Below are positions 2,918 through 20,608 of a stretch of 25,956 bases of DNA, one piece after another. The translations under genes were made by a program, and so were the position numbers. Source of the stretch: a virus (taxonomy: Duplodnaviria; Heunggongvirae; Uroviricota; Caudoviricetes); IMG/VR virus record IMGVR_UViG_2711768059_000012, positions 1 through 25,956 of that record. One strand, 5' to 3'. Below the pieces are notes generated by a model. That model made no database searches. It was not told the origin of the DNA and was given only the letters and a program-made list of their open reading frames with translations. Every line of letters starts with the position of its first letter. Position 1 is the first letter of the stretch.

Positions 2918-3856
2918 TTATTGTATTGTTAAGATAATGCTGGCTATAATTTGAATATCTTCAATGGAACACTCAAAATCCTTACTCCCACCAGAAACAA
3001 GAATTTTGTTCTTAGGTAAACGAGTTAACTCTTTTAAAGATAACTCATTGTCAATTCCTACTAACCATTTTCCATCTCTAATTAGGTGAAATTCTTTATC
3101 ACATATGACATGTTTTTCTCCATTGCTTACAAACATCAAGCTGCTAGTTTCTTGCTTCGGAAGTAGACACCGATCCATGGATAAAAAACCTGACTCGACA
3201 AGCACGCCATTGACCAAATTGAACTTATTTAAAATTACAGTGTTTTCTTCTTGTGAACTATTTGGTGTTTCGATTCCTGTAACTAGCCAGGCGAGATCCG
3301 CTTTGGTTTCTAATGCGCATTTAATCACCCAATCCGCAGGGAAAGAATCTCGCATGTATCGTGTGGCTAATGTGCTTTTTGAAATACCAAGGTGGTCGGC
3401 TAAGGCTTGGCGGGTTTTAAACCCGTAAGCATTAACAATCCTCTCTATCGCGGCTTTTCCTCCGTTAGTAAGCTCAATATGATTCTCAATGCGGCGCTTA
3501 AAGGATGATTGATGAGCGTTGCTGTTAAACCCCTCATGTGGGACTGTTTCATCATGTTGTTCCACATAAGGGGGGAAACTTTCTTCTGCATTGTTAGAAC
3601 CAAAGGCCAGCCATTCTAGGGATGCGCCAGTTTCCATTGAACATATAACAACCCAATCAGCAGGGAAGGTATCGCGTGCATATCTATTAGCCATTGTGCT
3701 TTGTGAAATACCAAGATGCTTACAGAAGGCTTGGCGTGATTTGAAACCATAGGCCTTGAGTATCCTCTCAATGACTTTTTGCCCTCCACGATTCTGCATG
3801 ACCATAGCTTTCAGACTATCTTCAATATGGCGAAATGTGATTTTTTGAGTTGACAT
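2918..3856 (-). CDS. cI: CI-type immunity repressor (186 CI family) with tandemly duplicated N-terminal HTH domain
   Basis: 312-aa ORF divergent from the apl/cII operon. Two ~58-aa copies of IERI(L/V)(K/N)AYGFK(S/T)RQA...HLGIS(Q/K)ST(M/L)A(N/T)RY(A/M)RD(T/S)FPADWV..., at residues ~29-86 and ~137-194, then a C-terminal domain. The duplication is also visible at the DNA level. Confidence 0.8.
   Translation of the reverse strand: MSTQKITFRHIEDSLKAMVMQNRGGQKVIERILKAYGFKSRQAFCKHLGISQSTMANRYARDTFPADWVVICSMETGASLEWLAFGSNNAEESFPPYVEQHDETVPHEGFNSNAHQSSFKRRIENHIELTNGGKAAIERIVNAYGFKTRQALADHLGISKSTLATRYMRDSFPADWVIKCALETKADLAWLVTGIETPNSSQEENTVILNKFNLVNGVLVESGFLSMDRCLLPKQETSSLMFVSNGEKHVICDKEFHLIRDGKWLVGIDNELSLKELTRLPKNKILVSGGSKDFECSIEDIQIIASIILTIQ
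3275..3772 (-). repeat. Intragenic tandem duplication (two ~174-bp copies, 3599-3772 and 3275-3448) encoding the two HTH modules of the repressor
   Basis: Protein-level repeat seen directly. Shared DNA strings such as gaaataccaag and aaggcttggcg occur in both copies. Confidence 0.7.
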
Positions 3857-3943: not shown

Positions 3944-4165
3944 ATGACCCCTAACATTTCAATAACTCTGAATACGCCACACGTCACAATTGAGCGTTAT
4001 AGCGAACTTACTGGTCTTTCTATCGACACCATCAACGATATGCTGGCTGATGGTCGTATCCCTCGCCATCGCCTTCGGAAAGACAAGAAAAAAGAAAAGG
4101 TAATGATCAACCTTGCTGCTCTTACCGTTGATGCACTTACTGATTGCAATGTTGTATTCATCTAG
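3944..4165 (+). CDS. Small DNA-binding regulator/excisionase, Apl/Cox-like (putative)
   Basis: 73-aa basic ORF ([12 protein letters not shown]), first gene of the rightward operon opposite cI, AGGAG RBS 10 nt upstream. Position matches apl of 186 and cox of P2. The function is assigned from position, not from a recognised motif. Confidence 0.5.
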
Positions 4166-4197
4166 TTCCATTTTGGGATGCATCAGGAGTGTCGACT

Positions 4198-4707
4198 ATG
4201 TTTGATTACCAAGTTTCCAAACATCCACATTTTGATGAAGCCTGTCGTGCATTTGCATTGCGCCACAACCTGGTGCAACTGGCAGAACGTGCAGGCATGA
4301 ATGTGCAGATTCTGCGGAACAAGCTGAACCCAGCTCAACCTCATTTATTAACCGCACCAGAAATCTGGTTGCTTACCGATCTGACTGAAGATTCAACGCT
4401 AGTAGATGGTTTTCTGGCTCAGATTCACTGCCTGCCATGCGTACCGATTAATGAGGTGGCAAAAGAGAAACTGCCGCATTACGTCATGAGTGCAACTGCA
4501 GAGATAGGGCGTGTCGCGGCAGGTGCGGTTTCTGGCGATGTAAAAACCAGTGCAGGCCGTCGTGATGCGATCAGCAGCATTAACTCTGTTACACGACTGA
4601 TGGCGCTGGCTGCTGTTTCATTGCAGGCCCGTTTACAGGCTAATCCTGCGATGGCGAGTGCAGTTGATACCGTGACTGGCCTCGGTGCTTCATTCGGTTT
4701 GCTGTGA
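4198..4707 (+). CDS. cII: Phage regulatory protein CII (186 CII family)
   Basis: 169-aa product starting [24 protein letters not shown]..., very close to my recollection of 186 CII (MFDFQVSKHPHYDEACRAF...). GGAG RBS. The ATG at 4198 is preferred over the upstream track start at 4144. Confidence 0.8.
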
Positions 4708-5521: not shown

Positions 5522-5748
5522 TGGCTGATGCAATGGATCTCGTACAGCAGCGCGTTGAAGAAGAACGCCAACGCCATATCCGTGCTGCCCGTGCCAAAAC
5601 GCCGGGCGTGTCCCGCGTGCTTTGCGTTGAGTGTGAAGCGCCAATTCCGCCAGCACGCCGCCGTGCCATTCCGGGTGTGCAGCTTTGCATTACCTGTCAG
5701 GAAATCGCAGAGCTGAAAGGCAAACATTACAACGGAGGTGCTGTATGA
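5521..5748 (+). CDS. TraR/DksA-family C4 zinc-finger protein
   Basis: 75-aa ORF with CVEC...(17 aa)...CITC four-cysteine motif typical of phage TraR-like proteins. Translationally coupled on both sides. Confidence 0.7.
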   Translation: MADAMDLVQQRVEEERQRHIRAARAKTPGVSRVLCVECEAPIPPARRRAIPGVQLCITCQEIAELKGKHYNGGAV

Positions 5749-6599
5749 GCACCATCCTGAAATGGGCAGGAAATAAAACCGCCATAATGTCCGAACTGAA
5801 AAAGTATCTTCCTGCTGGCCCGCGACTGGTTGAACCTTTCGCGGGTTCCTGTGCAGTGATGATGGAGACGGATTATCCCAGCTATCTTGTTGCGGATATT
5901 AATCCTGATTTAATCAACCTCTATAAAAAGGTTGCTGCTGATTGTGAGGCGTTTATATCTCGTGCCAGAGCTTTATTTGAGGAAGCAAACAGGGAGGTGG
6001 CTTATTACAACATAAGGCAGGAGTTTAATTACTCCACTGAAATTACTGATTTCATGAAAGCGGTATATTTCCTGTATCTCAATCGTCACGGTTACCGTGG
6101 TTTATGTCGCTATAACAAGAGCGGGCATTTCAACATTCCCTACGGTAATTATAAAAATCCGTATTTCCCTGAAAAAGAAATTCGCGCATTTGCAGAGAAA
6201 GCCCAGCGGGCAACGTTTATCTGCGCCAGCTTTGATGAAACGCTGGCGATGTTGAAGGTGGGGGATGTGGTGTATTGCGATCCGCCTTATGACGGTACGT
6301 TTTCCGGCTATCACACTGATGGTTTCACTGAAGATGATCAGTATCACCTGGCATCCATTCTTGAACATCGGTCATCAGAAGGACATCCGGTCATTGTTTC
6401 TAACAGTAACACGTCTTTGACCCGGTCCCTTTATCGTAATTTCACTCACCACTACATCAGGGCGAAACGCAGCATCGGCGTTGCAGCGGGGGAGGGAAAA
6501 TTTGCAACAGAGATGATTGCCACTAAATCTGCTAATTGGTTTAGTGCCGATTTTAGTAGGGGACGTGACTCTACTGTTATTTTCGGGGTGCAAGTGTGA
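5745..6599 (+). CDS. dam: DNA adenine methyltransferase (Dam-like, GATC-type N6-adenine MTase)
   Basis: Starts [23 protein letters not shown], has FAGSCAVM (SAM-binding) and CDPPYDGTF (DPPY catalytic motif). GGAGG RBS. ATGA overlap with the upstream gene. Confidence 0.85.
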
Positions 6600-7426
6600 A
6601 AGAAATGCACCACGGAATTCATCATTTCCATGGGACGCCTGTCTGGGGAAGTGCTGGCGACGTTCATCGTATTGCGGTGAGCGGAGCTGGCGCTTTCGTC
6701 TCCTATGTACGACCAGATCAGATTGCGGCGTCCATTCAGCACGCTCAGGTCGTCGGCATTGATAACGGCGCATTTTCTGCATGGGTGCGTGGGCTAAAAA
6801 TTAACTGGAGTGATTTTTATAAATGGCTCCTGAACTATTACCACCATCCTAAGGTCGCTTTTTTTGTCATTCCTGATGTTGTGGACGGAGGTGAACGTGA
6901 CAATGATGCCCTGATAAACGAAGTTCCGAAAATGTTCTACGGGAAGGCAACTCCCGTCTGGCATCTGCACGAGTCAATCGATCGGCTTATCGAGCTATGT
7001 CGTGAATGGCCTCGTGTCTGCTTTGGATCGTCTGGTGAATATGCGGCTATCAGAACTGCGCACTGGCATCGTCGTATGCAGGACGCTTTTGAAGCAATTT
7101 ATTGCCGACACAATTTCAAAACAGCTGTTCATGGTTTGCGCATGCTTGACGGTCGTGTGTTGGGAAATTACCCACTGGCGACTGCCGACAGTACAAATCT
7201 TGCCTGCAATGTCCCCAAATTTAATAGCAAATATCCTGAGCTGACGCGGGCTATTCAGGAGGCTGAGTATTCGCGCAATCTGACGGAAAAGGAGCTGAAA
7301 GCTGTCATTCTGAAAAACCGTTGCGCAATTTTAAAAGGTGCAATTGAAGCTGTTCGCCCACCTTCAGTTTCTGATTGGCTGTCGAATGGTTTGCAGCCTT
7401 CACAGCTCGAACTGGAGATTGCGTAA
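6596..7426 (+). CDS. Hypothetical protein, possibly a minimal TGT/DpdA-like (7-deazaguanine) transglycosylase (speculative)
   Basis: 276-aa ORF (GTG 6596 overlapping the dam stop, or ATG 6605). Motifs in the same order as in tRNA-guanine transglycosylases as I recall them: GTPVWGSAG (cf. TPAFMPVGT), [11 protein letters not shown] (cf. ILTDSGGFQV), FFVIPD (cf. MAFDE), FGSSGE (cf. GGLAVGE). No Zn-binding Cys cluster. The assignment rests on remembered motifs only. Confidence 0.55.
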
Positions 7427-9798
7427 TGAACTACAGCTATTCCTGGAATGCTGAGAAAAAAGCAATCAATCCTTACGTAGAGACAGAAGAGCAATCTTCA
7501 GTTTCTGCGCTTTCAAACCTGATCGCTCTGTACGCTGCCGATAACGAGCAGGAACAGCTGCGCCGCGAGGCACTGAGTGATCAGGTCTGGGAGCGTTATT
7601 TCTTTAATGAATCCCGTGATCCTGTCCAGCGCGAAATGGAGCAGGATAAGCTCATTAGTCGGGCAAAGCTGGCGCATGAGCAGCAGCGTTTTAATCCAGA
7701 TATGGTCATTCTGGCGGACGTCAATGCCCAGCCTTCCCATATCAGCAAGCCGCTGATGCAACGTATTGAATACTTCAGCAGCCTGGGCAGGCCAAAGGCT
7801 TATTCCCGCTATTTGCGTGAGACGATTAAGCCATGTCTGGAACGGCTGGAGCATGTACGCGACTGTCAGCTATCCACTTCTTTTCGCTTTATGGCAAGCC
7901 ATGAAGGGCTGGACGGCCTGCTGATCCTGCCTGAAATGAGTCAGGATCAGGTGAAACGCCTGTCCACCCTGGTAGCTGCGCATATGAGCATGTGCCTTGA
8001 TGCAGCTTGTGGCGATTTGTATGTCACCGATGACGTTAAGCCAGAAGAAATCCGCAAGACATGGGAAAAGGTGGCAGCGGAAACCCTGCGTCTGGATGTC
8101 ATCCCGCCTGCGTTTGAGCAACTCCGCCGGAAAAGAAACCGCCGTAAACCCGTGCCCTATGAACTCATTCCGGGTTCGCTGGCGCGTATGTTGTGCGCTG
8201 ACTGGTGGTACCGGAAATTATGGAAGATGCGTTGCGAATGGCGGGAAGAGCAGTTGCGTGCTGTCTGCCTGGTCAGCAAAAAAGCATCTCCCTATGTCAG
8301 CTATGAAGCCGTGATGCATAAACGTGAGCAGCGCCGTAAGTCGCTGGAGTTTTTTCGTTCTCATGAACTGGTGAACGAAGACGGCGACACGCTGGATATG
8401 GAAGACGTGGTAAACGCCAGCAGCAGCAACCCTGCGCATCGCCGCAATGAGATGATGGCCTGTGTTAAAGGCCTGGAGCTTATCGCGGAAATGCGCGGTG
8501 ACTGCGCCGTTTTCTACACCATCACCTGTCCGTCACGTTTCCATTCCACGCTAAATAATGGCAGGCCCAACCCAACTTGGACAAATGCGACGGTAAGACA
8601 AAGCAGTGATTATCTGGTCGGCATGTTTGCTGCATTTCGTAAGGCGATGCACAAAGCCGGATTGCGGTGGTATGGCGTGCGGGTGGCTGAGCCGCATCAT
8701 GACGGTACAGTTCACTGGCACCTGTTGTGTTTTATGCGCAAAAAAGACCGCCGCGCCATCACTGCATTACTGCGTAAGTTTGCCATCCGTGAAGACCGCG
8801 AGGAACTGGGCAATAACACTGGGCCGCGCTTTAAGTCTGAGTTGATTAACCCGCGCAAAGGTACGCCAACAAGCTACATCGCGAAATACATCAGTAAGAA
8901 CATTGACGGGCGTGGTCTGGCTGGCGAGATCAGCAAGGAAACGGGGAAATCCCTGCGTGATAATGCTGAATACGTTAATGCCTGGGCGTCTCTGCATCGT
9001 GTTCAGCAATTCCGCTTCTTTGGCATTCCGGGGCGTCAGGCTTACCGTGAACTGCGATTGCTGGCTGGTCAGGCGGCAAGGCAACAGGGGGACAAAAAAG
9101 CAGGTGCGCCGGTACTGGATAACCCGCGCCTTGATGCCATCCTGGCTGCTGCTGATGCTGGTTGTTTTGCCACCTACATCATGAAGCAGGGCGGCGTACT
9201 GGTTCCCCGCAAATATCACCTCATCAGAACCGCTTATGAAATCAACGAAGAGCCGACCGCCTATGGCGATCACGGCATTCGTATTTATGGCATCTGGTCA
9301 CCTATTGCAGAGGGCAAGATCTGCACTCATGCCGTGAAGTGGAAAATGGTTCGTAAGGCCGTTGATGTTCAGGAGGCGGCAGCCGACCAGGGCGCTTGCG
9401 CCCCTTGGACTCGTGGCAATAACTGTCCCCTTGCTGAAAATTTGAAACAACAAGGGAAAGACAAATCAGCTGATGGGGATACCAGAACGGATATCACCCG
9501 CATGGATGACAAGGAGTTGCACGATTACCTGCACAGTATGAGCAAAAAAGAGCGCCGGGAACTGGCTGCAAGGTTACGCCTGGTGAAACCGAAACGGCGT
9601 AAAGACTACAAACAGCGAATTACAGACCATCAGCGACAGCAGCTCGTCTATGAACTGAAGTCCAGAGGATTTGATGGCAGCGAGAAAGAGGTCGATTTAC
9701 TCCTTCGCGGCGGCAGTATTCCGTCAGGAGCAGGCCTGCGTATCTTCTATCGGAACCAGCGTTTGCAGGAAGATGATAAGTGGCGAAACCTGTATTAA
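7426..9798 (+). CDS. A: Rolling-circle replication initiator endonuclease (P2 gpA family)
   Basis: 790-aa product from ATG 7426 (overlaps the upstream stop as TAATG). HUH motif TVHWHLLCF and paired active-site tyrosines in [11 protein letters not shown]. Size matches P2 A. Confidence 0.9.
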
Positions 9799-9951: not shown

Positions 9952-10140
9952 ATGCAGGACTATTTTTTGGAGTCTTTGAAGCTCCAGCGCATTGATTTTT
10001 TTCTTAAACTTGTAGCGGCTAGTGAGTGTAGTGATGAAGAGAAGGGGCTGGCTTTGCAGTGGGTTTCTGAACTGACAGATGAACTCATGGCAAAAATCAG
10101 AACTCACGAATACAACCGCTCAATGGATGTCATCAGCTGA
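9952..10140 (+). CDS. Small hypothetical protein; possible N-terminal part of a Tum-like SOS antirepressor
   Basis: 62-aa ORF with AGGAGG RBS 4 nt upstream, immediately downstream of the LexA box. Overlaps the upstream extension of the dinI-like reading frame. Confidence 0.45.
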   Translation: MQDYFLESLKLQRIDFFLKLVAASECSDEEKGLALQWVSELTDELMAKIRTHEYNRSMDVIS

Positions 10141-10150: not shown

Positions 10151-10384
10151 ATGCGCATTGAAATAATGATCGATAAAGAGCAGAAGATTAGCCAGTCTAC
10201 CCTAGATGCCCTTGAATCCGAGCTTTACCGCAATCTGCGCCCCCTGTATCCCAAAACGGTAATTCGTATCCGCAAAGGTAGCTCTAACGGTGTGGAACTG
10301 ACCGGACTGCAACTGGACGAAGAAAGAAAACAAGTGCTGAAAATTATGCAGAAGGTGTGGGAAGACGACTGCTGGCTGCATTGA
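10151..10384 (+). CDS. dinI: DinI-family protein (DNA-damage-inducible protein I-like)
   Basis: 77-aa product MRIEIMIDKEQKISQSTLDALESELYRNLRPLYP...VWEDDCWLH resembles E. coli DinI (MRIEVTIAKT..., acidic C-terminus). GAGGTG RBS 6 nt upstream. Downstream of the LexA box. Confidence 0.75.
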   Translation: MRIEIMIDKEQKISQSTLDALESELYRNLRPLYPKTVIRIRKGSSNGVELTGLQLDEERKQVLKIMQKVWEDDCWLH

Positions 10385-10520
10385 TAGGTTTCGTTTGTAA
10401 TGAGTCATGTTTTTTGAGTCCGATAGTAGACAGCTAGAGGGATAAATGATTAATAGATAGATTAAACATAGTGATGGGCGTAAAATCGCGCGCATTTTAT
10501 TGGCAACGGATCTGAACTCA

Positions 10521-11414
10521 ATGGCGGATAAGACTCAATCAGTAAGTATTGTGTATCAAGGCAAAGCTCTCGACGATCATAAGATGGATATTCTTTCGTT
10601 TGCGAAAAGTTTGCAGGGGCTAGGTGAGGCTATCTACTCTGCAAATGAGATTGTAAACGGAGGGCGAGACATTGAAGTTAACGTTGACGCTGAATTGATA
10701 GCCGGTTCCTTTGGGTTTGATATTGAGGTTGTACAACATCTAGCTAATGCTAAAGATGTTGTACAAATTTTAGGTTTGTCAGCCATTCCTTTAGCCGTTG
10801 GCGGTGCTACAGTTTTAGAGGTTCTCAAGAAGCTTAACGGGCGTAAGATCGACATAGTCGAGAAAGCTAACGGTAGTGACAAAGTTAAGCTGAAAGTCGA
10901 TGGTGAAGAGATTGTTTGCTCTGAAGATGTCGAAAAAATCGTTAATGCCCCAGAGATTCGTAAGGCTGTTGACGCGTTTGTCAGACAGCCTCTGTTACAA
11001 GATGGTATCGACAATTTTGTGGTAAAAAAATCGCGCACCTCTAAGAAAGAAATCCTCAAAATTCATAAAGATGAGGCAGAAGAGTTTAAGTCGCCAAAAG
11101 TTCTCTTTGAAACCAAAGAAGAAGTTGACGAATTTGAAACAACCGTGACATTCGTTTCGGCGCATACTGACAAAAAAAGTGGCTGGCGTGTTGAGTTTGG
11201 CGGTGAAAAGCGCAATGTCAGAATGGAAGATAATGAGTTCATCAAGCTTGTTACTGGACCAGACGCCCCCAAAATTTTTGGCGAATTGTTTGCTGTGAAG
11301 ATGAAGAAAATTGTGAAAGATTCCGGTGGCCAGGTAGACGAAAAGTTATCGATCATCAAAGTGGGTCGACACTTTGCCGCCAAAGATAGAAAAATAAAAC
11401 CTGATGCGGATTAA
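10521..11414 (+). CDS. Hypothetical soluble protein, first gene of a three-gene accessory module
   Basis: 298-aa (ATG 10521; TTG 10500 also possible), Lys/Glu-rich, no recognised catalytic motif. Sits in a visibly AT-rich stretch. Stop is 2 nt before the next start. Confidence 0.6.
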   Translation: MADKTQSVSIVYQGKALDDHKMDILSFAKSLQGLGEAIYSANEIVNGGRDIEVNVDAELIAGSFGFDIEVVQHLANAKDVVQILGLSAIPLAVGGATVLEVLKKLNGRKIDIVEKANGSDKVKLKVDGEEIVCSEDVEKIVNAPEIRKAVDAFVRQPLLQDGIDNFVVKKSRTSKKEILKIHKDEAEEFKSPKVLFETKEEVDEFETTVTFVSAHTDKKSGWRVEFGGEKRNVRMEDNEFIKLVTGPDAPKIFGELFAVKMKKIVKDSGGQVDEKLSIIKVGRHFAAKDRKIKPDAD

Positions 11415-11416
11415 AA

Positions 11417-11680
11417 ATGTCTATAGATATTAGTGTGTTAGGATGGTTGGGGCTGCTTGTTGCAGCTCCAGCTATATTTATAGGTGCTAGAGTGGCTATA
11501 CGTAGCCTGCTCGATCGAGTTATTGTCGAAACAAAAGTTTCTATCACTTATACTGATGCAAACAAAAATGTCTATAAAACAAATATTTATATAAACAATG
11601 ATGATGAGTTAATAAAGCTCATCGATGATATAGCAGAGAAAAATAAGCGTGAGAGGAAGGAGTCAGCCTCTCATGCCTGA
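11417..11680 (+). CDS. Small membrane protein (one N-terminal TM helix), second gene of the module
   Basis: 87-aa. Hydrophobic VLGWLGLLVAAPAIFIGARVAI then a charged C-terminal tail. Coupled to both neighbours. Confidence 0.55.
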   Translation: MSIDISVLGWLGLLVAAPAIFIGARVAIRSLLDRVIVETKVSITYTDANKNVYKTNIYINNDDELIKLIDDIAEKNKRERKESASHA

Positions 11681-12089
11681 ACAAAAGAAAACAAGCGGTA
11701 AAGCAGTCGGTGTTACAGGTGGCGGCGGTGTAGGCCTTTTCCTAATAAAGCTGGCTAGCTTCATTACAGATCCAACATGGAAAGACCTTTACATTGCTTC
11801 AATACCGATGGTGTCAATTCTTTTAAGCGAAGTTTTTACTTTTGCATGGACGATTTATGCTGTTGATCCGCAAGAAATCAAACTGAAAAGGCGGTTGAAG
11901 GCTCTGAAGAAGCAAGCCGAAGCAGTTTTAAATGCACCATCGTCCCCTGTTTCTCCAGAAATGCGAGAGAAAGCGCAGGCTCGTTACGACGTGATCTGTG
12001 GAATTGAAATGGGAATTTACCCCCTCTCAATTGTAAATACGCTAGATGGAAAAGTATCCCCCACAGCGCAAACGCCGGACGTTAAATAG
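11673..12089 (+). CDS. Small membrane protein (two predicted TM helices, Gly-zipper), third gene of the module
   Basis: 138-aa from ATG 11673 (GAGGAAGGAG upstream; 8-nt overlap with previous gene). GVTGGGGVGLFLIKLASFI and IASIPMVSILLSEVFTFAWTIYAV hydrophobic segments, then a basic coiled region. Confidence 0.55.
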   Translation: MPEQKKTSGKAVGVTGGGGVGLFLIKLASFITDPTWKDLYIASIPMVSILLSEVFTFAWTIYAVDPQEIKLKRRLKALKKQAEAVLNAPSSPVSPEMREKAQARYDVICGIEMGIYPLSIVNTLDGKVSPTAQTPDVK

Positions 12090-12152
12090 CAGTTTCTACT
12101 TTGCATGACTATGCTGCATGAAATCGCATGATCGTTTGAGGATCGTTTTTGC

Positions 12153-12180
12153 AAAAGCCCGCCAGAACTGGCGGGCTTTT
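12153..12180. terminator. Perfect 13-bp inverted repeat hairpin (AAAAGCCCGCCAG-aa-CTGGCGGGCTTTT), likely bidirectional intrinsic terminator
   Basis: Read directly: the arms are exact reverse complements, with A-run and T-run flanks. Lies 64 nt after the module stop. Confidence 0.65.
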
Positions 12181-12225
12181 GCGTAGAGCATGCATCTGCA
12201 TGAAAACCACTACATAAAGCGGGCA

Positions 12226-12244
12226 GGCGTGGCGGGGATACGAG
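12226..12244. other. Candidate cos (cohesive-end) site
   Basis: GGCGTGGCGGGGATACGAG. The first 13 nt match the 186 cos 19-mer as I recall it (GGCGTGGCGGGGAAAGCAT; 15/19 overall), and the A-to-Q location matches where cos lies in P2/186. Confidence 0.4.
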
Positions 12245-12326
12245 TGCGCGCAATACGGTTCGATAAGAATTCACTTCGACTATGTTTTTAGATAATCTGG
12301 CAATAAAAGGATGAGGAGAATGGCAA

Positions 12327-13568
12327 ATGCAAAGAATAGTTTTTTACTCTTGGCAATCTGATTTAAATGGAAAATGTAATAGAAATTTAATTCAAGATGC
12401 TTTGGTTAGATCTCTAAAAGCAATAAAAAAGGATGAAACAGAAACATTGGAGCCAGTCTTGGATCGTGATACTAATGGTTTAAATGGCTCACCATCAATT
12501 AGCGAAAGCATTTTTAATAAAATATCACTTTCAGATGTTTTTGTTGCCGATGTTTCTATCATAAATGGAAGGTCTGAGGATAAGAAGACACCTAATCCAA
12601 ATGTTTTGATTGAATTAGGATATGCAGTATCCCAGCTAGGCTGGGATAGAGTAATCATGGTCCAGAATACATTTTATGGTTCTCCAGAAGAACTTCCTTT
12701 TGACTTAAGAGGACGGAGGGTAATTGCATATACTATGGACCCTGATAGTGATTCAAAACCTGAGGTAAGAAGCTTACTGCAAGGGCGACTTGAAACTGCA
12801 TTAAGGGAGTCCTTGAGTGATTCAAGCCAAGGAGCTATTTCTTCAGGTTTAAATGCACCAATATGGTGGGGGGAGTGGTACAAGGACAATCGCAGAAGTA
12901 ATTTTGGCAAATTATTTATTCGTGAAACATCGTCAAATGGTTTTCTTTTTGATTTAGTAGTTATGAATGGATCACATTCTGGGAGTATTACAGGAGAGGC
13001 GGTTTTTGTAGCTAGAGATTCAGCTTACGCTAGAATAAAAATACCTGGAAGTAATGAATTTGGCGAGTTGAGTTTTAGGCGCAGCATATTTGATGGTAAA
13101 CGATATATTAGGATAAGTGAGACCGTTAGTTGTCAATACTGGCGAGGTATGGGGGCCTTTTTTGATGGTGAGTTTCGTTGTGCAGAGGATCATTTGTTTT
13201 TATTTGGTTTTGCAAATGAAATGGAACTTCAGAGATTATACAACGTTATGGGGCAATATTACTTTGAACTGAAAAAAGTGATGGAGCAAATAGGTGAGCG
13301 CGATAATCTTGATACTTTTGTCGCAAAGGCTTATCAGGGAGGAGTTAGAGGACTTTATACCATTGCGGAAGGTATGGTGATGTTTGGTAGAGAGGGCGAG
13401 ATATGGGCTATTTATCTCAATGATGGTGAAATTCGTTATTTCACAAATGTACATAAATGGAAAAAAACTATTCCAAAAACTTTTGAACAGTGGCGAGAAC
13501 GATTTCCAGAGATTGAAATAAATTATGGAGGTGATATCTCGACACTTCCTACACAAGAAGATTTATAG
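12327..13568 (+). CDS. Two-domain protein: N-terminal TIR-like/nucleoside 2-deoxyribosyltransferase-like domain plus uncharacterised C-terminal domain; candidate anti-phage effector
   Basis: 413-aa. GAGGAG RBS 7 nt upstream. N-terminus RIVFYSWQSD (cf. TIR beta-A FISYSxxD) and NPNVLIELGYA (Glu96 in an E-[LI]-G-Y-A context as in the NDT/TIR-like superfamily). Very AT-rich. Followed by a hairpin terminator. Confidence 0.65.
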   Translation: MQRIVFYSWQSDLNGKCNRNLIQDALVRSLKAIKKDETETLEPVLDRDTNGLNGSPSISESIFNKISLSDVFVADVSIINGRSEDKKTPNPNVLIELGYAVSQLGWDRVIMVQNTFYGSPEELPFDLRGRRVIAYTMDPDSDSKPEVRSLLQGRLETALRESLSDSSQGAISSGLNAPIWWGEWYKDNRRSNFGKLFIRETSSNGFLFDLVVMNGSHSGSITGEAVFVARDSAYARIKIPGSNEFGELSFRRSIFDGKRYIRISETVSCQYWRGMGAFFDGEFRCAEDHLFLFGFANEMELQRLYNVMGQYYFELKKVMEQIGERDNLDTFVAKAYQGGVRGLYTIAEGMVMFGREGEIWAIYLNDGEIRYFTNVHKWKKTIPKTFEQWRERFPEIEINYGGDISTLPTQEDL

Positions 13569-13621: not shown

Positions 13622-14665
13622 TTAAGTTATGTTGGGTTCAAATGCATAAGAATCAAAACGAATTACTTGTTCATTGGCCCAGCTATTCAGTTCCTCAAAA
13701 CGCTTCTGTAGAGGGATCAGTTCATTTCGAACAAAAACGCGGCTGGCCTTCTCCACATCCCCAAACCCCCCGACATTATTCGGCATAATCCCCATCATCT
13801 GTGGCGGAACACGATGCGCCGCCATCATGTCATCGCGGCTGACGTTCTTGATGTTCAGAAATTCATCTTTCGCCGCGACTTCTGACAACGGGATGATCTG
13901 AAGCCCGTCTTTTTTGCCGTTAGGCGAGTACATAAACAGGTTGCGGAAGTTGCCCGGGCCTTTGGCGCTTTTCATTGCGTTGCGGAGGTTGTTCACGTCC
14001 TCCTGGTTCTGCGCGGCATCGGTCATGTACATGATGAAGCCTGCATGACTGCCGTTAATGTAATACTTGCGGCGGAACAGCGTGGCGGACTCGTTGAGCA
14101 GGGCTGACGGAATGGCAGAAAGATAACCGGGCAGGCCGTAGATCTCCTGGTTGATATCCGGTTCTATCAGATGAAAAATGCTGCCTTTCGTGAACTGATA
14201 CGGCTGGGTTGTCATACCGTATTGCACAAACCAGTAGGTATCCAGGTCTAACCCGCGTCGGGTGTATTTTGCCAGAGCAGGCTCAAGGGCGATAACTTCA
14301 CCGAAGCGGTTCGTGCGTTTCTCCAGGTAGGCGTTACCAAATACCAGATAGTCCTGCACAAAACGTGAAAAAGCCTGCTGGCTGAGCAGCGGGTGGGGGA
14401 TGTAGGTACTGGTCAGAATGTTGCATTTCACCGCAATTGGTGAACTGTGATGCACGGCGGCGCGGAAGGTGCGCGCCAGTCCGTCAAAGCTTACTGGCGG
14501 CTCATACCAGCGATCTGTCTGTACGCATTCCACATAGTCCAGTAGTTCGCGGCGGTCCAGAACAGGAACGGGATCACCGAAGCTGAATGCTTCGGCTGTA
14601 GTCTGACTTTTATGCTGGATCTGGTTCGTCGACGCAGCGCGGTTCTTCTTACTCTTTCCCATCAA
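13622..14665 (-). CDS. Q: Portal protein (P2 gpQ family)
   Basis: 347-aa (P2 Q is ~344 aa). Start overlaps the stop of the upstream terminase gene. Conserved position next to P and divergent from O. Confidence 0.9.
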   Translation of the reverse strand: MMGKSKKNRAASTNQIQHKSQTTAEAFSFGDPVPVLDRRELLDYVECVQTDRWYEPPVSFDGLARTFRAAVHHSSPIAVKCNILTSTYIPHPLLSQQAFSRFVQDYLVFGNAYLEKRTNRFGEVIALEPALAKYTRRGLDLDTYWFVQYGMTTQPYQFTKGSIFHLIEPDINQEIYGLPGYLSAIPSALLNESATLFRRKYYINGSHAGFIMYMTDAAQNQEDVNNLRNAMKSAKGPGNFRNLFMYSPNGKKDGLQIIPLSEVAAKDEFLNIKNVSRDDMMAAHRVPPQMMGIMPNNVGGFGDVEKASRVFVRNELIPLQKRFEELNSWANEQVIRFDSYAFEPNIT

Positions 14666-16428
14666 AAAATCTCCACAATATTACTGGTATTGGCGGACTC
14701 GCCCTGCAGTGGTTCGTTAAACAGTGCGTGCATTGTTGCCCAGGCCAGATCGGCGTGGCTGGCTTCTTCGCTGCGGCTGGCTTCATAGGTTGGGCGGTTG
14801 CCACTGGCGGTGGTTGCGCGACGGATTGCCATGAATGACTGCGCAATGTCGGTGTGCCCGGCGTCAAACTCCAGACGGCGGTGGCTGATAATGTCGTAGG
14901 CCTTGAGTACCAGGGCGTTTTTAACGTTGGGGTTGTAGACAAACTCCCGGACGGCAGGAAAGAACGCTTTCACGTTCTCGTAAACCCCGTGACCAACGCC
15001 GGTTGAGTCGATACCGATATAAGTCACGTTGTACTGCTCGGTAAGTTTTTTGATGGCGTCAGCCTGGGCGCGGAAGTCCATCCCGCGCCACTGGTGACGC
15101 TCAAGAATGCGGAACTTACCACCCGGCACGGCTGGCGGTGCCACCACCACGCATCCAGCGCTGTCGCCGTTTTGCGTACCTTTTGCCGGGTCATAACCGA
15201 TCCACACTTCGCGCCAGCCAAACGGGCGCAGCGCCAGTGCATGAAAGTCGGTCCAGACTTCCCAACTGTCCACCATGCACGCCTGCAGCTCGCTGAGCGG
15301 AAACACGGACGCGAGATCGTCCACAAACTCGCACATCAGCAGGTTCTGGTATTCGTCCGGGCTGTACTCCATGCGTAGCTGGTCGAGGTCGAACAGGTTA
15401 CAGCCGCCGCGCACCGCATCTTCTACGGTGACTATCTGGCGGTATTGCCCGTCTGCGCACAGCAGGCCGGGGGCCAGATTGCTGTGGGACAGGTCGATGT
15501 CCACCTTGTCGGCTTTGTTGCGCCCACGGTTGAACAGCGCACCGGACCAGAACGGATAAGCACTGTGTGTCAGACTGGATGGCGTGGAAAAATAGGTTTG
15601 TCGCCATTTTTTGTGAATAGCCATACCGGAAGCCACTTTGCGCAGCTCCTGGAATTTCGGTATCCAGAAATATTCATCCAGATACAGGTTGCCGTGGTAA
15701 CTCTGGGCCGTGCGGGCATTGGTGCCGAGGAAGTAAAGCGTGGCCCCGTTAGGAAGCACCATCGGATCGCCTTTCAGCTCCACCTCCACTTCTTTGGCAA
15801 AGTCGATGATGTACTGTTTAAAGACGTGGGCCTGAGCCTTGCTGGCAGAAAGGAAAATCTGGTTACGCCCGGTCAGCAGGGCGTCAATCAGGGCTTCACG
15901 GGCAAAGTAAAAGGTCGCGCCGATCTGGCGTGACTTCAGCAGGTTGCGGATGCGGTTGGTTTTTCCGGCTTCCCACCAGTGGCGCTGGTAGTTGAACATG
16001 GAGGAATGGAAGATTTTTTCCAGCTTCTCAATCTGTTCATCGGTGAAGACATTCTTTTCCGGCTGACGGCGCGGGCCTTTGTTGCGGTTGGCGACGTTAG
16101 GGTTTAAGTCAGCTTCGTTGCCGCCATTGTTAAACTTGCCGATCCGCGCGTGGCGCTCAGACTGGCGCGCCAGCAGGTCAATCTCTTTGAAATCTTTCCC
16201 TTCTTTGTGCTCCTTCATAATGAGCTGGCAGTAGCGTGCGGCGGTGGTGAGCTGCATCTGATCCAGCGGCCCATAGTCACCCCACTTGTCGCGTTTTTTC
16301 CAGCTGTGAACGGTTGCAACTTTCTCGCCCAGCATTTCAGCAATGCGGGCGACGCGGTATCCCTGAAAGTACAGCAGCATGGCCTGCCGACGGGGATCGA
16401 GATCTGCGGGTGTCAGTGTGGTGTTCAT
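14662..16428 (-). CDS. P: Terminase large (ATPase) subunit (P2 gpP family)
   Basis: 588-aa (P2 P ~590 aa), adjacent to and co-directional with Q, divergent from the capsid operon. Confidence 0.9.
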   Translation of the reverse strand: MNTTLTPADLDPRRQAMLLYFQGYRVARIAEMLGEKVATVHSWKKRDKWGDYGPLDQMQLTTAARYCQLIMKEHKEGKDFKEIDLLARQSERHARIGKFNNGGNEADLNPNVANRNKGPRRQPEKNVFTDEQIEKLEKIFHSSMFNYQRHWWEAGKTNRIRNLLKSRQIGATFYFAREALIDALLTGRNQIFLSASKAQAHVFKQYIIDFAKEVEVELKGDPMVLPNGATLYFLGTNARTAQSYHGNLYLDEYFWIPKFQELRKVASGMAIHKKWRQTYFSTPSSLTHSAYPFWSGALFNRGRNKADKVDIDLSHSNLAPGLLCADGQYRQIVTVEDAVRGGCNLFDLDQLRMEYSPDEYQNLLMCEFVDDLASVFPLSELQACMVDSWEVWTDFHALALRPFGWREVWIGYDPAKGTQNGDSAGCVVVAPPAVPGGKFRILERHQWRGMDFRAQADAIKKLTEQYNVTYIGIDSTGVGHGVYENVKAFFPAVREFVYNPNVKNALVLKAYDIISHRRLEFDAGHTDIAQSFMAIRRATTASGNRPTYEASRSEEASHADLAWATMHALFNEPLQGESANTSNIVEIF

Positions 16429-16474
16429 GGCACAAACCTACAGCCTTGAATGAAGGCTTTCCCCGCCTGCGGTT

Positions 16475-16492
16475 TGTGTGGTTGTCGGTACA
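16475..16492. promoter_or_regulatory. Late-promoter activator site (TGT-N12-ACA dyad) in the divergent P/O control region
   Basis: TGTgtggttgtcggtACA in the 142-bp intergenic region between P and O. P2 Ogr/Delta-dependent late promoters carry this dyad. Confidence 0.5.
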
Positions 16493-16570
16493 AATACCGC
16501 GCATTGTTTCACTGCCCCCATCACCGCAACCATAAGGCTCCAGTAAGTTTTTTCTAACGGAGCACGGCTC

Positions 16571-17404
16571 ATGACAGTGAAAGCAAAGCGTTTTCGCATC
16601 GGGGTGGAAGGTGCCACCACCGATGGACGCGAAATCCAGCGTGAATGGCTGGAACAGATGGCAGCCAGCTACAACCCGGCGGTGTATACCGCGCTGATTA
16701 ACCTTGAGCACATCAAGTCTTATCTGCCGGACAGCACCTTTAACCGCTACGGCAAGGTGACGGCGCTGTTTGCTGAAGAAATCACGGAAGGTCCACTGGC
16801 AGGCAAGATGGCGCTGTATGCCGACGTTGAGCCAACGGAGTCCCTGGTGGAGCTGGTGAAAAAAGGCCAGAAATTATTCACCTCTATGGAAGTCAGCCCG
16901 AAGTTCGCTGATACGGGCAAAGCCTACCTGGTTGGCCTGGCTGCCACTGATGACCCTGCCAGTCTGGGCACTGAAATGCTGACATTCAGCGCCAGTGCAG
17001 CTCATAACCCGCTGGCAAACCGCAAGCAGAATCCCGCCAATCTCTTTACCGCTGCAGAGGAAACGGTGATCGAACTGGAAGAAATCCAGGATGACAAACC
17101 GTCCCTGTTTGCCCGTGTCACGGCGTTGTTTACCAAAAAAGAGCAGTCCGATGACGCCCGGTTCTCTGATGTGCATAAGGCCGTGGAGCTGGTCGCCACT
17201 GAGCAGCAGAACCTGAGCGCACGCACCGAAAAATCCCTGTCTGAGCAGGAAGAACGCCTGTCTGAACTGGAGACTGCTCTGCAGGAGCAGCAAACCGTCT
17301 TTAACGAACTGGTGAATAAGCTGAGTCATGAAGACAGCCGCCAGGACTACCGCCAGCGTGCAACAGGCGGTAACGCCCCCGCTGACACTCTGACCAATTG
17401 CTGA
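16571..17404 (+). CDS. O: Capsid scaffolding protein (P2 gpO family)
   Basis: 277-aa, first gene of the rightward late operon, GGAG RBS, acidic coiled-coil C-terminus. Order O-N-M-L as in P2. Confidence 0.85.
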   Translation: MTVKAKRFRIGVEGATTDGREIQREWLEQMAASYNPAVYTALINLEHIKSYLPDSTFNRYGKVTALFAEEITEGPLAGKMALYADVEPTESLVELVKKGQKLFTSMEVSPKFADTGKAYLVGLAATDDPASLGTEMLTFSASAAHNPLANRKQNPANLFTAAEETVIELEEIQDDKPSLFARVTALFTKKEQSDDARFSDVHKAVELVATEQQNLSARTEKSLSEQEERLSELETALQEQQTVFNELVNKLSHEDSRQDYRQRATGGNAPADTLTNC

Positions 17405-17420
17405 TGGAGCACAAAACCTG

Positions 17421-18479
17421 ATGAAGAAGAATACCCGCTTTGCTTTTAACGCTTACCTGCGGCAGCTGGCGCGTCTGAACGGTGTGGCAGTTGAAGAACT
17501 GTCCAGCAAGTTCACCGTGGAGCCGTCTGTACAGCAGACGCTGGAAGACCAGATCCAGCAGTCCGCCGCTTTCCTGACGCTGATTAACGTCACGCCAGTG
17601 ACTGAGCAGTCCGGTCAGCTGCTGGGGTTGGGTGTTGGTAGCACCATTGCCGGAACCACTGACACCACCGCGAAAGAGCGTGAACCTGTCGATCCTACGC
17701 TGATGGTCGATGTGGAATACAAATGCGAGCAGACCAACTTTGACACGGTACTGACCTACGCGAAGCTGGACCTGTGGGCGAAGTTTCAGGATTTCCAGGT
17801 GCGTATCCGTGACGCCATCGTGAAACGTCAGGCACTGGACCGCATCATGATCGGCTTTAACGGCGTGAAGCGTGCGAAAACCTCCAACCGTAGCGAAAAC
17901 CCGCTGCTGCAGGATGTGAACAAAGGCTGGTTACAGAAAATCCGTGAGGATGCACCGGATCACGTCATGGGCAGCAGCACCACGGGCGGTGAAACCACAC
18001 CGGGTGCGGTGAAAGTCGGTAAAGGTGGCGAATATGCCAACCTGGACGCCGTGGTGATGGATGCCGTCAATGAGCTTATCGACGTTGTCTACCAGGACGA
18101 TGACGATCTGGTGGTGATTTGCGGGCGTGAACTGCTGTCTGACAAGTATTTCCCGCTGGTCAACAAAGAGCAGGAAAACAGTGAAAAACTGGCTGCCGAT
18201 ATGATCATCAGTCAGAAACGCATGGGTGGCCTGCAGGCGGTGCGTGCGCCGTTCTTCCCGCCGAATGCGCTGCTGATCACCCGTCTGGATAACCTGTCCA
18301 TCTACTGGCAGGAAGATACCCGCCGCCGTTCAGTTATCGACAACCCGAAACGTGACCGGATTGAAAATTTTGAATCCGTTAACGAAGCCTATGTGGTTGA
18401 GGACTATCGCTGCGCTGCACTGGTGGAAAACATCCAGATTGGTGACTTCAGCGCCGCCGCAGCAGAAACCGGAGCGTAA
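17421..18479 (+). CDS. N: Major capsid protein (P2 gpN family)
   Basis: 352-aa (P2 N ~357 aa), follows the scaffold gene. Confidence 0.9.
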   Translation: MKKNTRFAFNAYLRQLARLNGVAVEELSSKFTVEPSVQQTLEDQIQQSAAFLTLINVTPVTEQSGQLLGLGVGSTIAGTTDTTAKEREPVDPTLMVDVEYKCEQTNFDTVLTYAKLDLWAKFQDFQVRIRDAIVKRQALDRIMIGFNGVKRAKTSNRSENPLLQDVNKGWLQKIREDAPDHVMGSSTTGGETTPGAVKVGKGGEYANLDAVVMDAVNELIDVVYQDDDDLVVICGRELLSDKYFPLVNKEQENSEKLAADMIISQKRMGGLQAVRAPFFPPNALLITRLDNLSIYWQEDTRRRSVIDNPKRDRIENFESVNEAYVVEDYRCAALVENIQIGDFSAAAAETGA

Positions 18480-18482
18480 TTC

Positions 18483-19133
18483 ATGAGCCTGAGTCCCGCA
18501 CGGCAGCATCGCCTGCGCGTTCAGGCTGAACAGGCCGCTCGCGAGGGTGGCAGTGTTCGCCACGCGTCGGGCTATGACCTGATGCTGCTGCAACTGGCGG
18601 AAGACCGCCGCCGTCTCAAGGGCGTTCAGTCCACGGTCAAAAAAGCGGAAATCAAGGTGGAGCTGCTGCCGAAATATGCCGCCTGGGCGGAGGGCGTTCT
18701 GGCTGCCGGAGGCGCTCAACAGGATGACGTGCTGATGTACGTGATGCTGTGGCGCATTGATGCCGGAGATTATGCCGGGGCGCTGGAGATCGGGCGTCAT
18801 GCCCTGCGTCATGGCTGGGTGATGCCGCTGGGTAACCGCAACGTGCAGACCGTGCTGGCAGAGGAAATGGCAGACGCGGCGCAGAGCGCAATGCTTGCCG
18901 CCACCGGCTTTGATGCCGATCTGTTGCTGCAGACGCTGGAGCTGACAGACGGTCTGGATATGCCGGACCAGTCACGGGCGCGTCTGCATAAAGCGGTTGG
19001 CGCTGTCCTGAGTGAAAGCAACCCGGCTTCCGCCCTTAATCATCTCAACCATGCGTTACAGCTCGATCCTCGCTGTGGCGTGAAAAAAGACAAACAGCAG
19101 CTGGAGCGCAGACTGCGCAATGACAGCCGCTGA
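18483..19133 (+). CDS. M: Terminase small (endonuclease) subunit (P2 gpM family)
   Basis: 216-aa, GGAG RBS, follows N as in P2. Confidence 0.85.
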   Translation: MSLSPARQHRLRVQAEQAAREGGSVRHASGYDLMLLQLAEDRRRLKGVQSTVKKAEIKVELLPKYAAWAEGVLAAGGAQQDDVLMYVMLWRIDAGDYAGALEIGRHALRHGWVMPLGNRNVQTVLAEEMADAAQSAMLAATGFDADLLLQTLELTDGLDMPDQSRARLHKAVGAVLSESNPASALNHLNHALQLDPRCGVKKDKQQLERRLRNDSR

Positions 19134-19228
19134 CAGAACGTGCCCCCGCGCACGGGCGGCACGGGGTGGCGAAAGGCACTGCCACATCAAAACCCCGTCC
19201 ACCGCCCTCTATTTCAGGAGAAAGCAGC

Positions 19229-19693
19229 ATGAAGTTTGTTGCGCCAGAACAGGCACCGGAACAGGCGGAAATTATCAGGAATACGCCGTTCTGGCCTGAT
19301 GTGGACCTGTCGGAGTTTCGCAGCGTGATGCGCACTGACGGCACGGTGACGCAGCCGCGTTTAAAGCAGGTTGCGCTGTCGGCAATTTCGGAGGTCAACG
19401 CAGAGCTGTATGAGTTTCGCAGACGCCAGCAGATGCTGGGGTATGCCTCGCTGGCAGAGGTTCCGGCGGAACAGCTGGACGGCAAAAGTGAGCGCATTCA
19501 GCACTATTTTAACGCGGTTTACTGCTGGGCACGCGCCATGCTCAACGAACGTTACCAGGACTATGACGCCACGGCGTCCGGTGTGAAGCGGGGCGAGGAA
19601 CTGGCGGAAGCAAGCGGTGATTTGTGGCGTGACGCCCGCTGGGCCATCAGCCGGGTGCAGGATGCGCCGCACTGCACAGTGGAGCTTATCTGA
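19229..19693 (+). CDS. L: Head completion/stabilisation protein (P2 gpL family)
   Basis: 154-aa from ATG 19229 (AGGAG 8 nt upstream; the track start 19166 lacks an RBS). Stop overlaps the next gene start (ATGA). Confidence 0.8.
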   Translation: MKFVAPEQAPEQAEIIRNTPFWPDVDLSEFRSVMRTDGTVTQPRLKQVALSAISEVNAELYEFRRRQQMLGYASLAEVPAEQLDGKSERIQHYFNAVYCWARAMLNERYQDYDATASGVKRGEELAEASGDLWRDARWAISRVQDAPHCTVELI

Positions 19694-19896
19694 TGAAAGT
19701 GCGTGCGCATCAGTATGACACGGTGGACGCGCTTTGCTGGCGTCATTACGGGCGCACGCAGGGTGTCACGGAGCAGGTACTGAAGGCAAATCCGGGGCTT
19801 GCCGAATACGGCCCCTTTTTACCTCACGGGCTGCAGGTGGAGCTGCCGGACATTCCGACCACCACCACCGTGCAGACCGTCCAGCTATGGGACTGA
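19693..19896 (+). CDS. X: Tail protein X (P2 gpX family)
   Basis: 67-aa, conserved position between L and the lysis cassette. Confidence 0.75.
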   Translation: MKVRAHQYDTVDALCWRHYGRTQGVTEQVLKANPGLAEYGPFLPHGLQVELPDIPTTTTVQTVQLWD

Positions 19897-19899
19897 ATT

Positions 19900-20115
19900 A
19901 TGACGCTTGAGCGAATCAGCGCCTTTATCACGTATTGCATCGCCGTCGTGCTGGCCTGGCTGGGCGATTTGTCCATCAAGGATGCCTCAACGCTGGGCGG
20001 CCTGATGATTGGTGTGCTGATGCTGGCTATCAACTGGTACTACAAACACAAAGCCTACCAGCTTCTGCGCGACGGGCAGATCTCGCGGGAGGACTATGAA
20101 TCCATCAATCGTTAA
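19900..20115 (+). CDS. Holin (small two-TM, pinholin-like)
   Basis: 71-aa with two hydrophobic helices (AFITYCIAVVLAWLG; LGGLMIGVLMLAINWYY) and a charged C-terminus, immediately before the endolysin. Confidence 0.7.
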   Translation: MTLERISAFITYCIAVVLAWLGDLSIKDASTLGGLMIGVLMLAINWYYKHKAYQLLRDGQISREDYESINR

Positions 20116-20608
20116 ACGCTGCCTTGTCGGGGCCGTGCTGGCTATTACTGCCACGCTGCCGGGTTTTCAGCAGCTTCACACCTCCGTGGAGGGGCTGAAA
20201 CTGATTGCCGATTACGAAGGCTGTCGTCTGCAGCCGTATCAGTGCAGCGCGGGTGTCTGGACCGACGGCATTGGTAATACATCGGGCGTTATTCCCGGCA
20301 AAACAATCACGGAACGACAGGCAGCAGAAGGGCTGATCTCCAACGTGCTGCGTGTGGAGCGGGCACTGGAAAGGTGTGTGAAGCAACAGCCACCACAGAA
20401 GGTGTATGACGCTACGGTGTCGTTTGCCTTCAACGTGGGGACGGGCAATGCCTGCAGCTCCACGCTGGTGAAATTGCTCAATCAGCGGCGCTGGGCGGAT
20501 GCGTGCCGACAGTTGCCGCGCTGGGTTTATGTAAAAGGTGTGTTTAATCAGGGGCTGGATAACCGCCGTGCGCGGGAGATGGCCTGGTGTTTACAGGGAG
20601 CAAACTGA
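20096..20608 (+). CDS. K: Endolysin, phage lysozyme (T4-lysozyme/GH24-like) with N-terminal signal-anchor-release (SAR) segment
   Basis: 170-aa. N-terminal hydrophobic CLVGAVLAITATLPG, then catalytic region EG...(8 aa)...x...(5 aa)...T in YEGCRLQPYQCSAGVWTDGIGNT. GGAGG RBS. Confidence 0.85.
   Translation: MNPSIVKRCLVGAVLAITATLPGFQQLHTSVEGLKLIADYEGCRLQPYQCSAGVWTDGIGNTSGVIPGKTITERQAAEGLISNVLRVERALERCVKQQPPQKVYDATVSFAFNVGTGNACSSTLVKLLNQRRWADACRQLPRWVYVKGVFNQGLDNRRAREMAWCLQGAN

Follow-up and report, generated by a model that had tools for sequence, protein, structure and literature searches.

The 25,956-nucleotide (nt) stretch of viral DNA analysed here (positions 1 to 25,956 of IMG/VR record IMGVR_UViG_2711768059_000012; hereafter the window) is a P2/186-like prophage that carries, at 10383–12101 on the plus strand, an acquired cassette of three cargo genes, A (10521–11414), B (11417–11680) and C (11673–12089). 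We favour, with a probability of roughly 0.6, the reading that this cassette is a mobile moron protecting the lysogen against other phages, an enterobacterial three-gene version of the gp29/gp30 defence of mycobacteriophage MichelleMyBell (MMB). The cassette is a genuine, accessory feature with clear limits. It most probably serves defence, judging from the match of its first product, protein A, to the PADLOC family PDC-S42 and from the remote homology of that protein to gp29, and the proposal of a candidate defence system, made in a preliminary description from the letters of the DNA alone, finds support in the same two matches. As to mechanism, abortive infection or exclusion is the best reading, by inference. 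Throughout, phage gene A denotes the replication endonuclease gene of the prophage (7375–9798), and cassette A, B and C denote the cargo genes.

Protein A and its relationship to gp29

Protein A, a soluble protein of 297 amino acids (aa), is a full-length member, above threshold, of three families. It matches NCBIfam NF053583 LAPAL_fam, an equivalog named in full 'LAPAL motif-containing putative phage structural protein', at 191.7 bits, where 60 bits is the cut-off (E 1.8e-56, profile positions 2–290 of 292), PADLOC PDC-S42 (PDLC05015) with 148.2 bits (E 8.8e-44, residues 5–288, profile positions 3–293 of 302), and phrog_3243, a family of uncharacterised function, at 3.7e-59. All three are single-gene entries, none of which covers the B and C partners that are obligatory in this subfamily. 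The preliminary description had found no product that could be placed in a known family; since protein A meets LAPAL_fam, PDC-S42 and phrog_3243, the module is not an unplaced novelty. For B and C there are no known relatives. A profile search of 1.84 billion cluster representatives recovered 3,619 family clusters (at 50% identity) at E ≤0.001 and 556 at E ≤1e-30, and all but two of the best 150 clusters are 276–336 aa long. Literature searches found no papers mentioning PDC-S42, DUF7946, the LAPAL motif or the RefSeq accessions of the proteins.

Profile comparisons show protein A to be a PDC-S42 member and a remote, full-length homologue of gp29, a 310-aa protein of MMB (accession KF986246; PMC4939774). 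In hhalign, a 23-sequence protein A alignment matched gp29 over 253 columns with a probability of 83.7% and an E value of 8e-6, bringing the invariant GSF, PL, W and D..F positions into register. A hidden Markov model (HMM) of 160 family members scored gp29 at 73 bits, aligning HMM positions 15–296 with gp29 residues 24–297, and the best of 500 shuffles reached 7.1 bits. gp29 itself matches PDC-S42 at 1.6e-16. A Foldseek search of BFVD with the AlphaFold2 (AF2) model of protein A found a protein of the cluster N mycobacteriophage Pipsqueaks (2.6e-7), and the submitters of a Vibrio element, PQ189332, labelled its A homologue 'MMB_gp29_gp30__gp29'; a tblastn search with this Vibrio homologue against phage records returned no mycobacteriophage match.

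The two systems are also alike in organisation. In both, a soluble protein of ~300 aa, homologous over its full length, is accessory cargo of a temperate phage, with a gene for a small membrane protein coming next. The gp29 gene maps between lysis genes and integrase, in a central part of the genome from which cluster N phages are described as expressing genes during lysogeny. In MMB, gp30 overlaps gp29 by 41 nt, whereas here B starts 2 nt after A and it is B and C that overlap, and the single 67-aa gp30 with two transmembrane (TM) segments contrasts with two partners here, one of 87 aa with one TM helix and one of 138 aa with two. Secondary descriptions of MMB gp29/gp30 speak of a toxic protein and a putative membrane protein that defend against lytic phages by an unexplained mechanism (PMC11856565), and of an abortive-infection-like action in which adsorption and DNA injection proceed normally (PMC6426606). 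The hosts differ, being Gammaproteobacteria here and Actinobacteria for MMB; DefenseFinder, as reported, detected MMB_gp29_gp30 in Actinobacteria only (PMC10482375).

The AF2 model of protein A (predicted local distance difference test, pLDDT, 79.9; predicted template-modelling score, pTM, 0.62) has an N-terminal strand-helix-hairpin domain that contains a GSFG motif as well as the 'LAPAL' helix; next come a moderately hydrophobic segment rich in Gly and Ala (from about residue 79 to 100–105), a middle alpha/beta domain and a C-terminal beta-barrel with an OB-fold at about residues 199–285. Against the PDB, Foldseek returned nothing for protein A at E <0.001, and a sequence search found no solved relative. 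A Gly/Ala/Thr-rich hydrophobic stretch at about residues 80–110 (window 10758–10850) is present in nearly every family member; among sampled members its hydropathy is 1.4–2.0 in distant relatives and about 1.0 in most of those linked to B and C, with the E. coli protein (1.8) as an exception. We considered and rejected protein A as a membrane protein: residues 79–100 of the E. coli protein are borderline (1.8), but the Klebsiella and Proteus homologues are charged there.

Weak N-terminal matches to DUF7946, below the cut-off and seen in 9 of 35 family members (best E 2e-5), were kept as a lead only. Behind them lies a motif at residues 9–42 of protein A (window 10521–10650), Y-x-G-x-A-L-x-x-H-x-M-D...S-L-x-G-L. 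The motif aligns with protein 1 of pFR87, the soluble protein of the P4-hotspot system 'HP+4TMs' (hhalign E 0.016, probability 2.8%); it may be a common adaptor module for membrane partners, or the resemblance may be due to chance. 'HP+4TMs' is not the same system, this weak motif being all that the two have in common.

Boundaries, gene order and mobility of the cassette

The limits of the cassette were set by alignment to two related prophages, one with an empty slot (L037) and one carrying a TIR-domain gene only (L002). Backbone identity ends at 10382, at the end of a DinI-like gene, and restarts at 12102, 13 nt past the stop codon of cassette C; the cargo is therefore 10383–12101, which holds exactly three genes, all on the plus strand, and 138 nt upstream of them. 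The preliminary description had noted that the stretch is more AT-rich than the phage core, and the composition agrees: the G+C content (GC) of the module is 41.7% against about 53–56% (52.7% in phage gene A and 56.5% in 14666–25956), and GC at third codon positions (GC3) is 0.31–0.39 in the cassette genes against 0.57 in phage gene A.

Re-reading the open reading frames (ORFs) together with the RefSeq starts confirmed three co-directional genes with a 2-nt gap and an 8-nt overlap. The TAA stop of cassette A is separated from the start of B by 2 nt, and B and C overlap by ATGCCTGA. RefSeq annotation of identical cassette copies uses the starts called here; that of protein A is the start of WP_000764102, with a TTG at 10500 as an alternative, and cassette C corresponds to WP_001115044. 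A Shine-Dalgarno sequence, GGAAGGAG, lies 8 nt 5' of the ATG of cassette C, and the GTG at 11649, which the ORF lister had chosen for this gene, is probably not its true start. The 8-nt overlap suggests that translation of B and C is coupled.

Of 5,426 complete E. coli genomes, about 1,281 have the flanking backbone and 8 have the cassette. At this frequency it is accessory and not conserved core, being missing from almost all related P2/186-like prophages, which bears out the earlier view of horizontally acquired cargo. Seven intact copies of the 1,719-bp cassette are ≥99.9% identical, and the eighth is cut by IS1. In a degraded prophage of E. coli 22AR0118 (L003, 3288–5326), IS1A truncates cassette A and leaves B and C intact, a natural A-minus variant of an otherwise identical cassette.

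The order A-B-C is kept in seven backbone settings. Besides the hotspot between phage gene A and cos of the E. coli P2/186-like prophage, these are a Klebsiella prophage, between tail genes and SSB and on the other strand from its neighbours; a Proteus prophage, just 3' of an S24 (CI-like) repressor that points the same way and faces a divergent Cro-like gene; a Proteus siphophage, between tail genes; a Mu-like phage, inside the head genes (37% GC in a locus of 58% GC); an environmental contig, next to a morphogenesis gene family also seen in the Mu-like locus; and a Vibrio PM2-like element, next to the integrase. With HMMs of B and C, we found B and then C after A in 32 of 32 loci across unrelated phage backbones (protein A at least about 31% identical to that of the window; 30 loci including the window and near-identical copies, plus two more found with C as the query). 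The three genes are inherited together, as a unit that jumps between unrelated phage backbones. Because the cassette is also found on the PM2-like element, it crosses tailed and non-tailed phage lineages. Among distant relatives of protein A that lack B and C, P0049 and P0055 stand alone, and P0079 has a different neighbour, a 103-aa protein with a single TM segment.

Two of these settings can be described more closely. On the Vibrio element (L007; phage 10N.286.45.F8_PE001, PQ189332) the cassette occupies 7980–9584 of a 14-kb PM2-like (Vinavirales) genome, beside the integrase. In two Proteus mirabilis prophages (L008 and L010, 5004–7550), A-B-C comes after an S24-peptidase CI-like repressor, opposite a Cro/YdaS-like gene. 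Lambda rexAB likewise sits downstream of a CI-like repressor (PMC6426606), and the cI-rexA-rexB-like layout in Proteus hints, by analogy, at expression from the maintenance promoter of the repressor. For lysogenic expression and protection against heterotypic phages in the manner of MMB, the support is contextual, coming from the hotspot location and from this placement after the repressor.

Membrane partners, proposed mechanism and alternative readings

Hydropathy and charge show B and C to be small membrane proteins whose soluble parts are predicted to face the cytoplasm, where they would be able to meet protein A. With one hydrophobic segment in B and two in C, the earlier picture of one soluble protein followed by two small membrane proteins is upheld. 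B (87 aa) has a hydropathy peak of 2.15 at residues 5–23, placing one N-terminal TM helix at about 5–24; arginines follow the helix (R25, R29 and R34), so the 59-residue C-terminal domain, with its conserved KVTITY...DDE...LIDDIAEK, would lie in the cytoplasm. Homologues of B, 22–41% identical, come directly after A, and the sole library match of B is a weak one to phrog_36230. C (138 aa) has hydrophobic segments at 11–29 and 38–62, the first of which holds a conserved GGGG(V/A/I)G run, a lysine-rich N-terminus, an inter-helix loop of ~9 residues and a basic helical tail about 76 residues long; since the basic residues are so placed, the positive-inside rule puts both termini of C in the cytoplasm. 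The AF2 model of C, of low confidence (pLDDT 64), has helices at 18–28, 34–63, 66–87 and 95–112. Homologues of C, 17–41% identical, always come after B, overlapping it by 4–20 nt where gene calls were compared, and C has no match in Pfam, PADLOC, NCBIfam or PHROGs. Signal peptides and periplasmic domains are absent, the periplasmic loop of C spanning only about 9 residues.

In the mechanism that we propose, protein A would be held inactive in the lysogen, bound to the cytoplasmic domains of B and C, which would themselves form a complex in the membrane. An infecting phage would make a protein or nucleic-acid cue, which A may recognise through its C-terminal OB-fold domain; the complex would then switch, the inner membrane would be permeabilised or depolarised, and the infection would abort. 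The permeabilising element could be the glycine-rich helices of C, possibly together with the Gly/Ala-rich hydrophobic segment of A. The proposed switch logic is the same as that of lambda RexA/RexB and Sbash gp30/31; in these systems, as in CarolAnn gp44/43, a prophage-expressed soluble protein acts with a small multi-TM protein in abortive infection. The likeness to RexAB is one of analogy, and we ruled out membership of that type: protein A has no Pfam match to DUF4747 (RexA) at E ≤0.1, no RexA structure is among the PDB fold matches listed for it, and the TM layout differs, with one 4-TM membrane protein in lambda RexAB against one and two TM helices on two proteins here.

Several observations weigh against a gp29/gp30-like defence function. 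Protein A and gp29 are only about 22% identical, and gp30 shows no similarity to B or C (HMM scores of 1.5 and −1.8 bits; BLASTP E 1.2), so that B and C are analogous to gp30, homology not being demonstrable. Because the homology to gp29 is remote and the partner proteins differ, function may have diverged. PDC-S42 is listed as no more than a 'phage defence candidate', PADLOC entries of this kind being described as untested candidates (PMC11514479), and the NCBI family carries the name 'putative phage structural protein'. Rousset et al. 2022 catalogued the A-B-C arrangement at least 12 times in their Table S5A but did not test it. Stand-alone relatives of protein A exist, which argues that the membrane proteins are not the universal effector. 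A scan of the 138 nt upstream of cassette A found no σ70 promoter at its threshold. Finally, the OB domain is near neutral (isoelectric point about 7); since it is not basic, nucleic-acid sensing is not favoured over protein binding.

The alternative that survives best, and which we hold as a tentative possibility, reverses the roles. Protein A would then be a toxic effector, acting through its Gly/Ala segment in the membrane or through binding of an essential nucleic acid or protein by the OB domain, and B and C would be an anchored antitoxin or sensor that sequesters A until infection, as in abortive infection by a toxin-antitoxin pair. Three points favour this assignment: the reported toxicity of gp29 within MMB gp29/gp30 (secondary description, PMC11856565), the stand-alone relatives, and the conserved hydrophobic segment of A, present at ~80–110 in nearly all members and stronger in the sampled distant relatives. 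Consistent with it, A forms the constant part of a very large family (the 3,619 clusters at E ≤0.001), in which the partners vary from none (P0049, P0055) through a 103-aa 1-TM protein (P0079) and the 2-TM gp30 of MMB to B and C here, and PADLOC files the family as a single-gene candidate. On the other side, AF2 places residues 79–105 inside a soluble fold with moderate confidence, the segment is charged in Klebsiella and Proteus and thus cannot be a TM helix there, and both the strict conservation of C and its glycine run, likewise conserved, suggest a role beyond that of a passive anchor. The division into a soluble sensor and a membrane effector put forward in the preliminary description thereby becomes one of two live models, given that gp29 is reported toxic and that partnerless relatives fit A as effector; either side may be the one that kills, with the other restraining it.

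A broader proposal, which we consider unlikely as it stands, is that the LAPAL/PDC-S42/gp29 family forms a widespread and mechanistically new immune class, in which the OB fold would sense a cue and the central segment, with lineage-specific partners, such as B and C, would form a lethal lesion in the membrane. A new pore-forming or membrane-disrupting family of abortive-infection systems would then have its first genetically tractable model in the E. coli cassette. The family is spread over at least 3,619 clusters, with members in Actinobacteria and Gammaproteobacteria and on Mu-like and PM2-like backbones. Were this proposal true, the 'structural protein' misannotation in pipelines would be corrected.

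We regard as improbable a role in lysogenic conversion or at the membrane that has nothing to do with abortive infection, be the cassette a block to DNA entry (Sie, or like Charlie gp32), a modulator of the envelope or a prophage addiction module. Two of the three products are indeed small inner-membrane proteins, single prophage membrane proteins can exclude DNA injection (PMC9262239), and an Imm_superinfect gene lies near the Klebsiella locus. A conserved soluble partner of 297 aa, together with homology to an abortive-infection-like system in which adsorption and injection are normal (gp29/gp30; PMC6426606), points instead to an intracellular step, and the products lack the signal peptides or periplasmic domains noted above, with about 9 residues in the loop of C. 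Because of the conserved cytoplasmic partner, a pure entry block or conversion function is less consistent with the data than defence acting inside the cell.

That these are phage structural or morphogenetic genes, as the equivalog name of LAPAL_fam implies and as the placing of the cassette among head or tail genes in three loci (L009, L011 and L038) might suggest, is hardly credible, for the position varies (beside a repressor, beside an integrase, or between tail and replication genes but on the opposite strand), nearly all related P2/186-like prophages lack the cassette, its GC stands out as foreign even where it sits in a structural operon, PHROGs, Pfam, PDB and BFVD yield no resemblance to a virion protein, and gp29 belongs to a region described as lysogenically expressed. 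Homology to a structural protein thus exists in name only, and the genomic contexts contradict the name. Newer PGAP runs, for example on H5/H57 (E. coli PEC148), give protein A the full LAPAL_fam name and so propagate it; the evidence here suggests that it is misleading.

If the cassette does defend E. coli, Enterobacteria, Vibrio and many phage backbones would be added to the range of a defence type described from one mycobacteriophage, and three labels, those of a PADLOC candidate, of an NCBI 'structural protein' family and of an uncharacterised PHROG, would prove to name one family. The mechanism of gp29/gp30 would then be open to study in a tractable host, in a three-gene version with genetically separable partners. 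Defence cargo is to be expected in this hotspot, and the finding is probably a variant within the gp29/gp30 type rather than a wholly new system. Should no phenotype appear, the cassette would stand as a well-delimited moron whose role is unassigned.

Cargo slots and other genes of the prophage

The P2-type hotspot is a validated site of anti-phage systems (PMC9122126). The preliminary description had placed the module in the hotspot between phage gene A and cos or Q; it does fill the slot between phage gene A and cos, and the hotspot has two slots. The second, between cos and Q, holds a TIR-domain gene of 413 aa (12327–13568, plus strand). Elsewhere the TIR gene is found alone, and the three-gene cassette is accompanied by a DUF262 gene instead. 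Because the TIR gene and the cassette occur separately, with cos between them, the hotspot comprises two independently loaded slots. We accordingly ruled out a four-gene system made of the cassette and the TIR gene, which are separate elsewhere and split here by a backbone hairpin and cos. If the defence reading holds, the A-to-cos and cos-to-Q slots of P2/186-like prophages would be loaded independently, with an Old nuclease, the cassette and the TIR gene stacked in this prophage.

The hairpin (12151–12182) has a perfect 14-bp stem and a 4-nt loop, GCAAAAGCCCGCCA-GAAC-TGGCGGGCTTTTGC, and is terminator-like in both directions. The RNA fold of 12090–12200 reaches −44.1 kcal/mol (z −4.4), which none of 200 shuffles equalled. 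An earlier claim that a perfect 13-bp hairpin bounds the operon is thus right as to a real hairpin, one base pair longer than stated, and wrong as to its being a terminator specific to the operon. The block 12102–12255 is 93.5% identical in the empty-slot prophage, and the pFR109 clone of Rousset et al., though its cargo differs, likewise shows the hairpin and cos block; since the block is backbone common to prophages with other cargo, the hairpin is not part of the acquired cassette. It probably ends transcription of whichever cargo lies upstream. The block also holds a second small hairpin, is common to prophages with differing cargo on either side, and may insulate the two slots transcriptionally.

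Between the two cargo slots, at 12226–12244, lies GGCGTGGCGGGGATACGAG, a cos-like sequence read from the window, which we take, against the background of P2 and 186, to be cos. It falls within the conserved block 12102–12255, outside the cassette, and is very similar to the cos-proximal GGCGAGGCGGGGAAAGCAC in P2/P4 clones (Rousset et al., Table S2).

Systems from the same hotspot, between phage gene A and Q, described by Rousset et al. 2022 are superficially like the cassette in gene count and TM themes. In particular, a TIR gene adjoins the cassette, as in the 2TM+1TM+TIR system of phage AC1, but here as an independent cassette. We considered identity with the 'three hypothetical proteins' system (hp+hp+hp, Rst_3HP) or with AC1 2TM+1TM+TIR and rejected it, the Table S2 sequences being unrelated. 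Compared with the validated proteins of that work (pFR109, pFD240), proteins A, B and C reached a best BLASTP E of 1.6 and the neighbouring TIR protein 0.52, in short alignments.

The remaining backbone runs from an integrase (1–1032, minus strand) through a 186-type CI repressor (2918–3856, minus strand), CII (4144–4707), a Dam methylase (5685–6599), phage gene A, a 62-aa ORF (9952–10140) and the DinI-like gene (10151–10384; Pfam DinI 8e-21) to the portal gene Q (13622–14665, minus strand).

The TIR protein has an N-terminal CAP12/Pycsar-type TIR domain (Pfam 6.7e-6; PADLOC TIR effector 1.8e-9) and a C-terminal part of ~260 residues with no family match, and its gene has 37% GC. In no complete RefSeq E. 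coli genome was it found together with the three-gene cassette; other E. coli prophages carry it alone after DinI (WP_023277642, 'TIR-like' in Table S5A of Rousset et al.). Proteins A, B and C have no Old match in PADLOC, and the true Old homologue of the window is encoded away from them, as a full-length Old-type ATPase/TOPRIM nuclease (1105–2874, minus strand; PADLOC Old 8.7e-234). Flanked by the genes for the integrase and the 186-type CI repressor, it sits in a stretch of 31–39% GC, at a locus different from that of P2's own old gene, and is a third defence-type cargo of this prophage.

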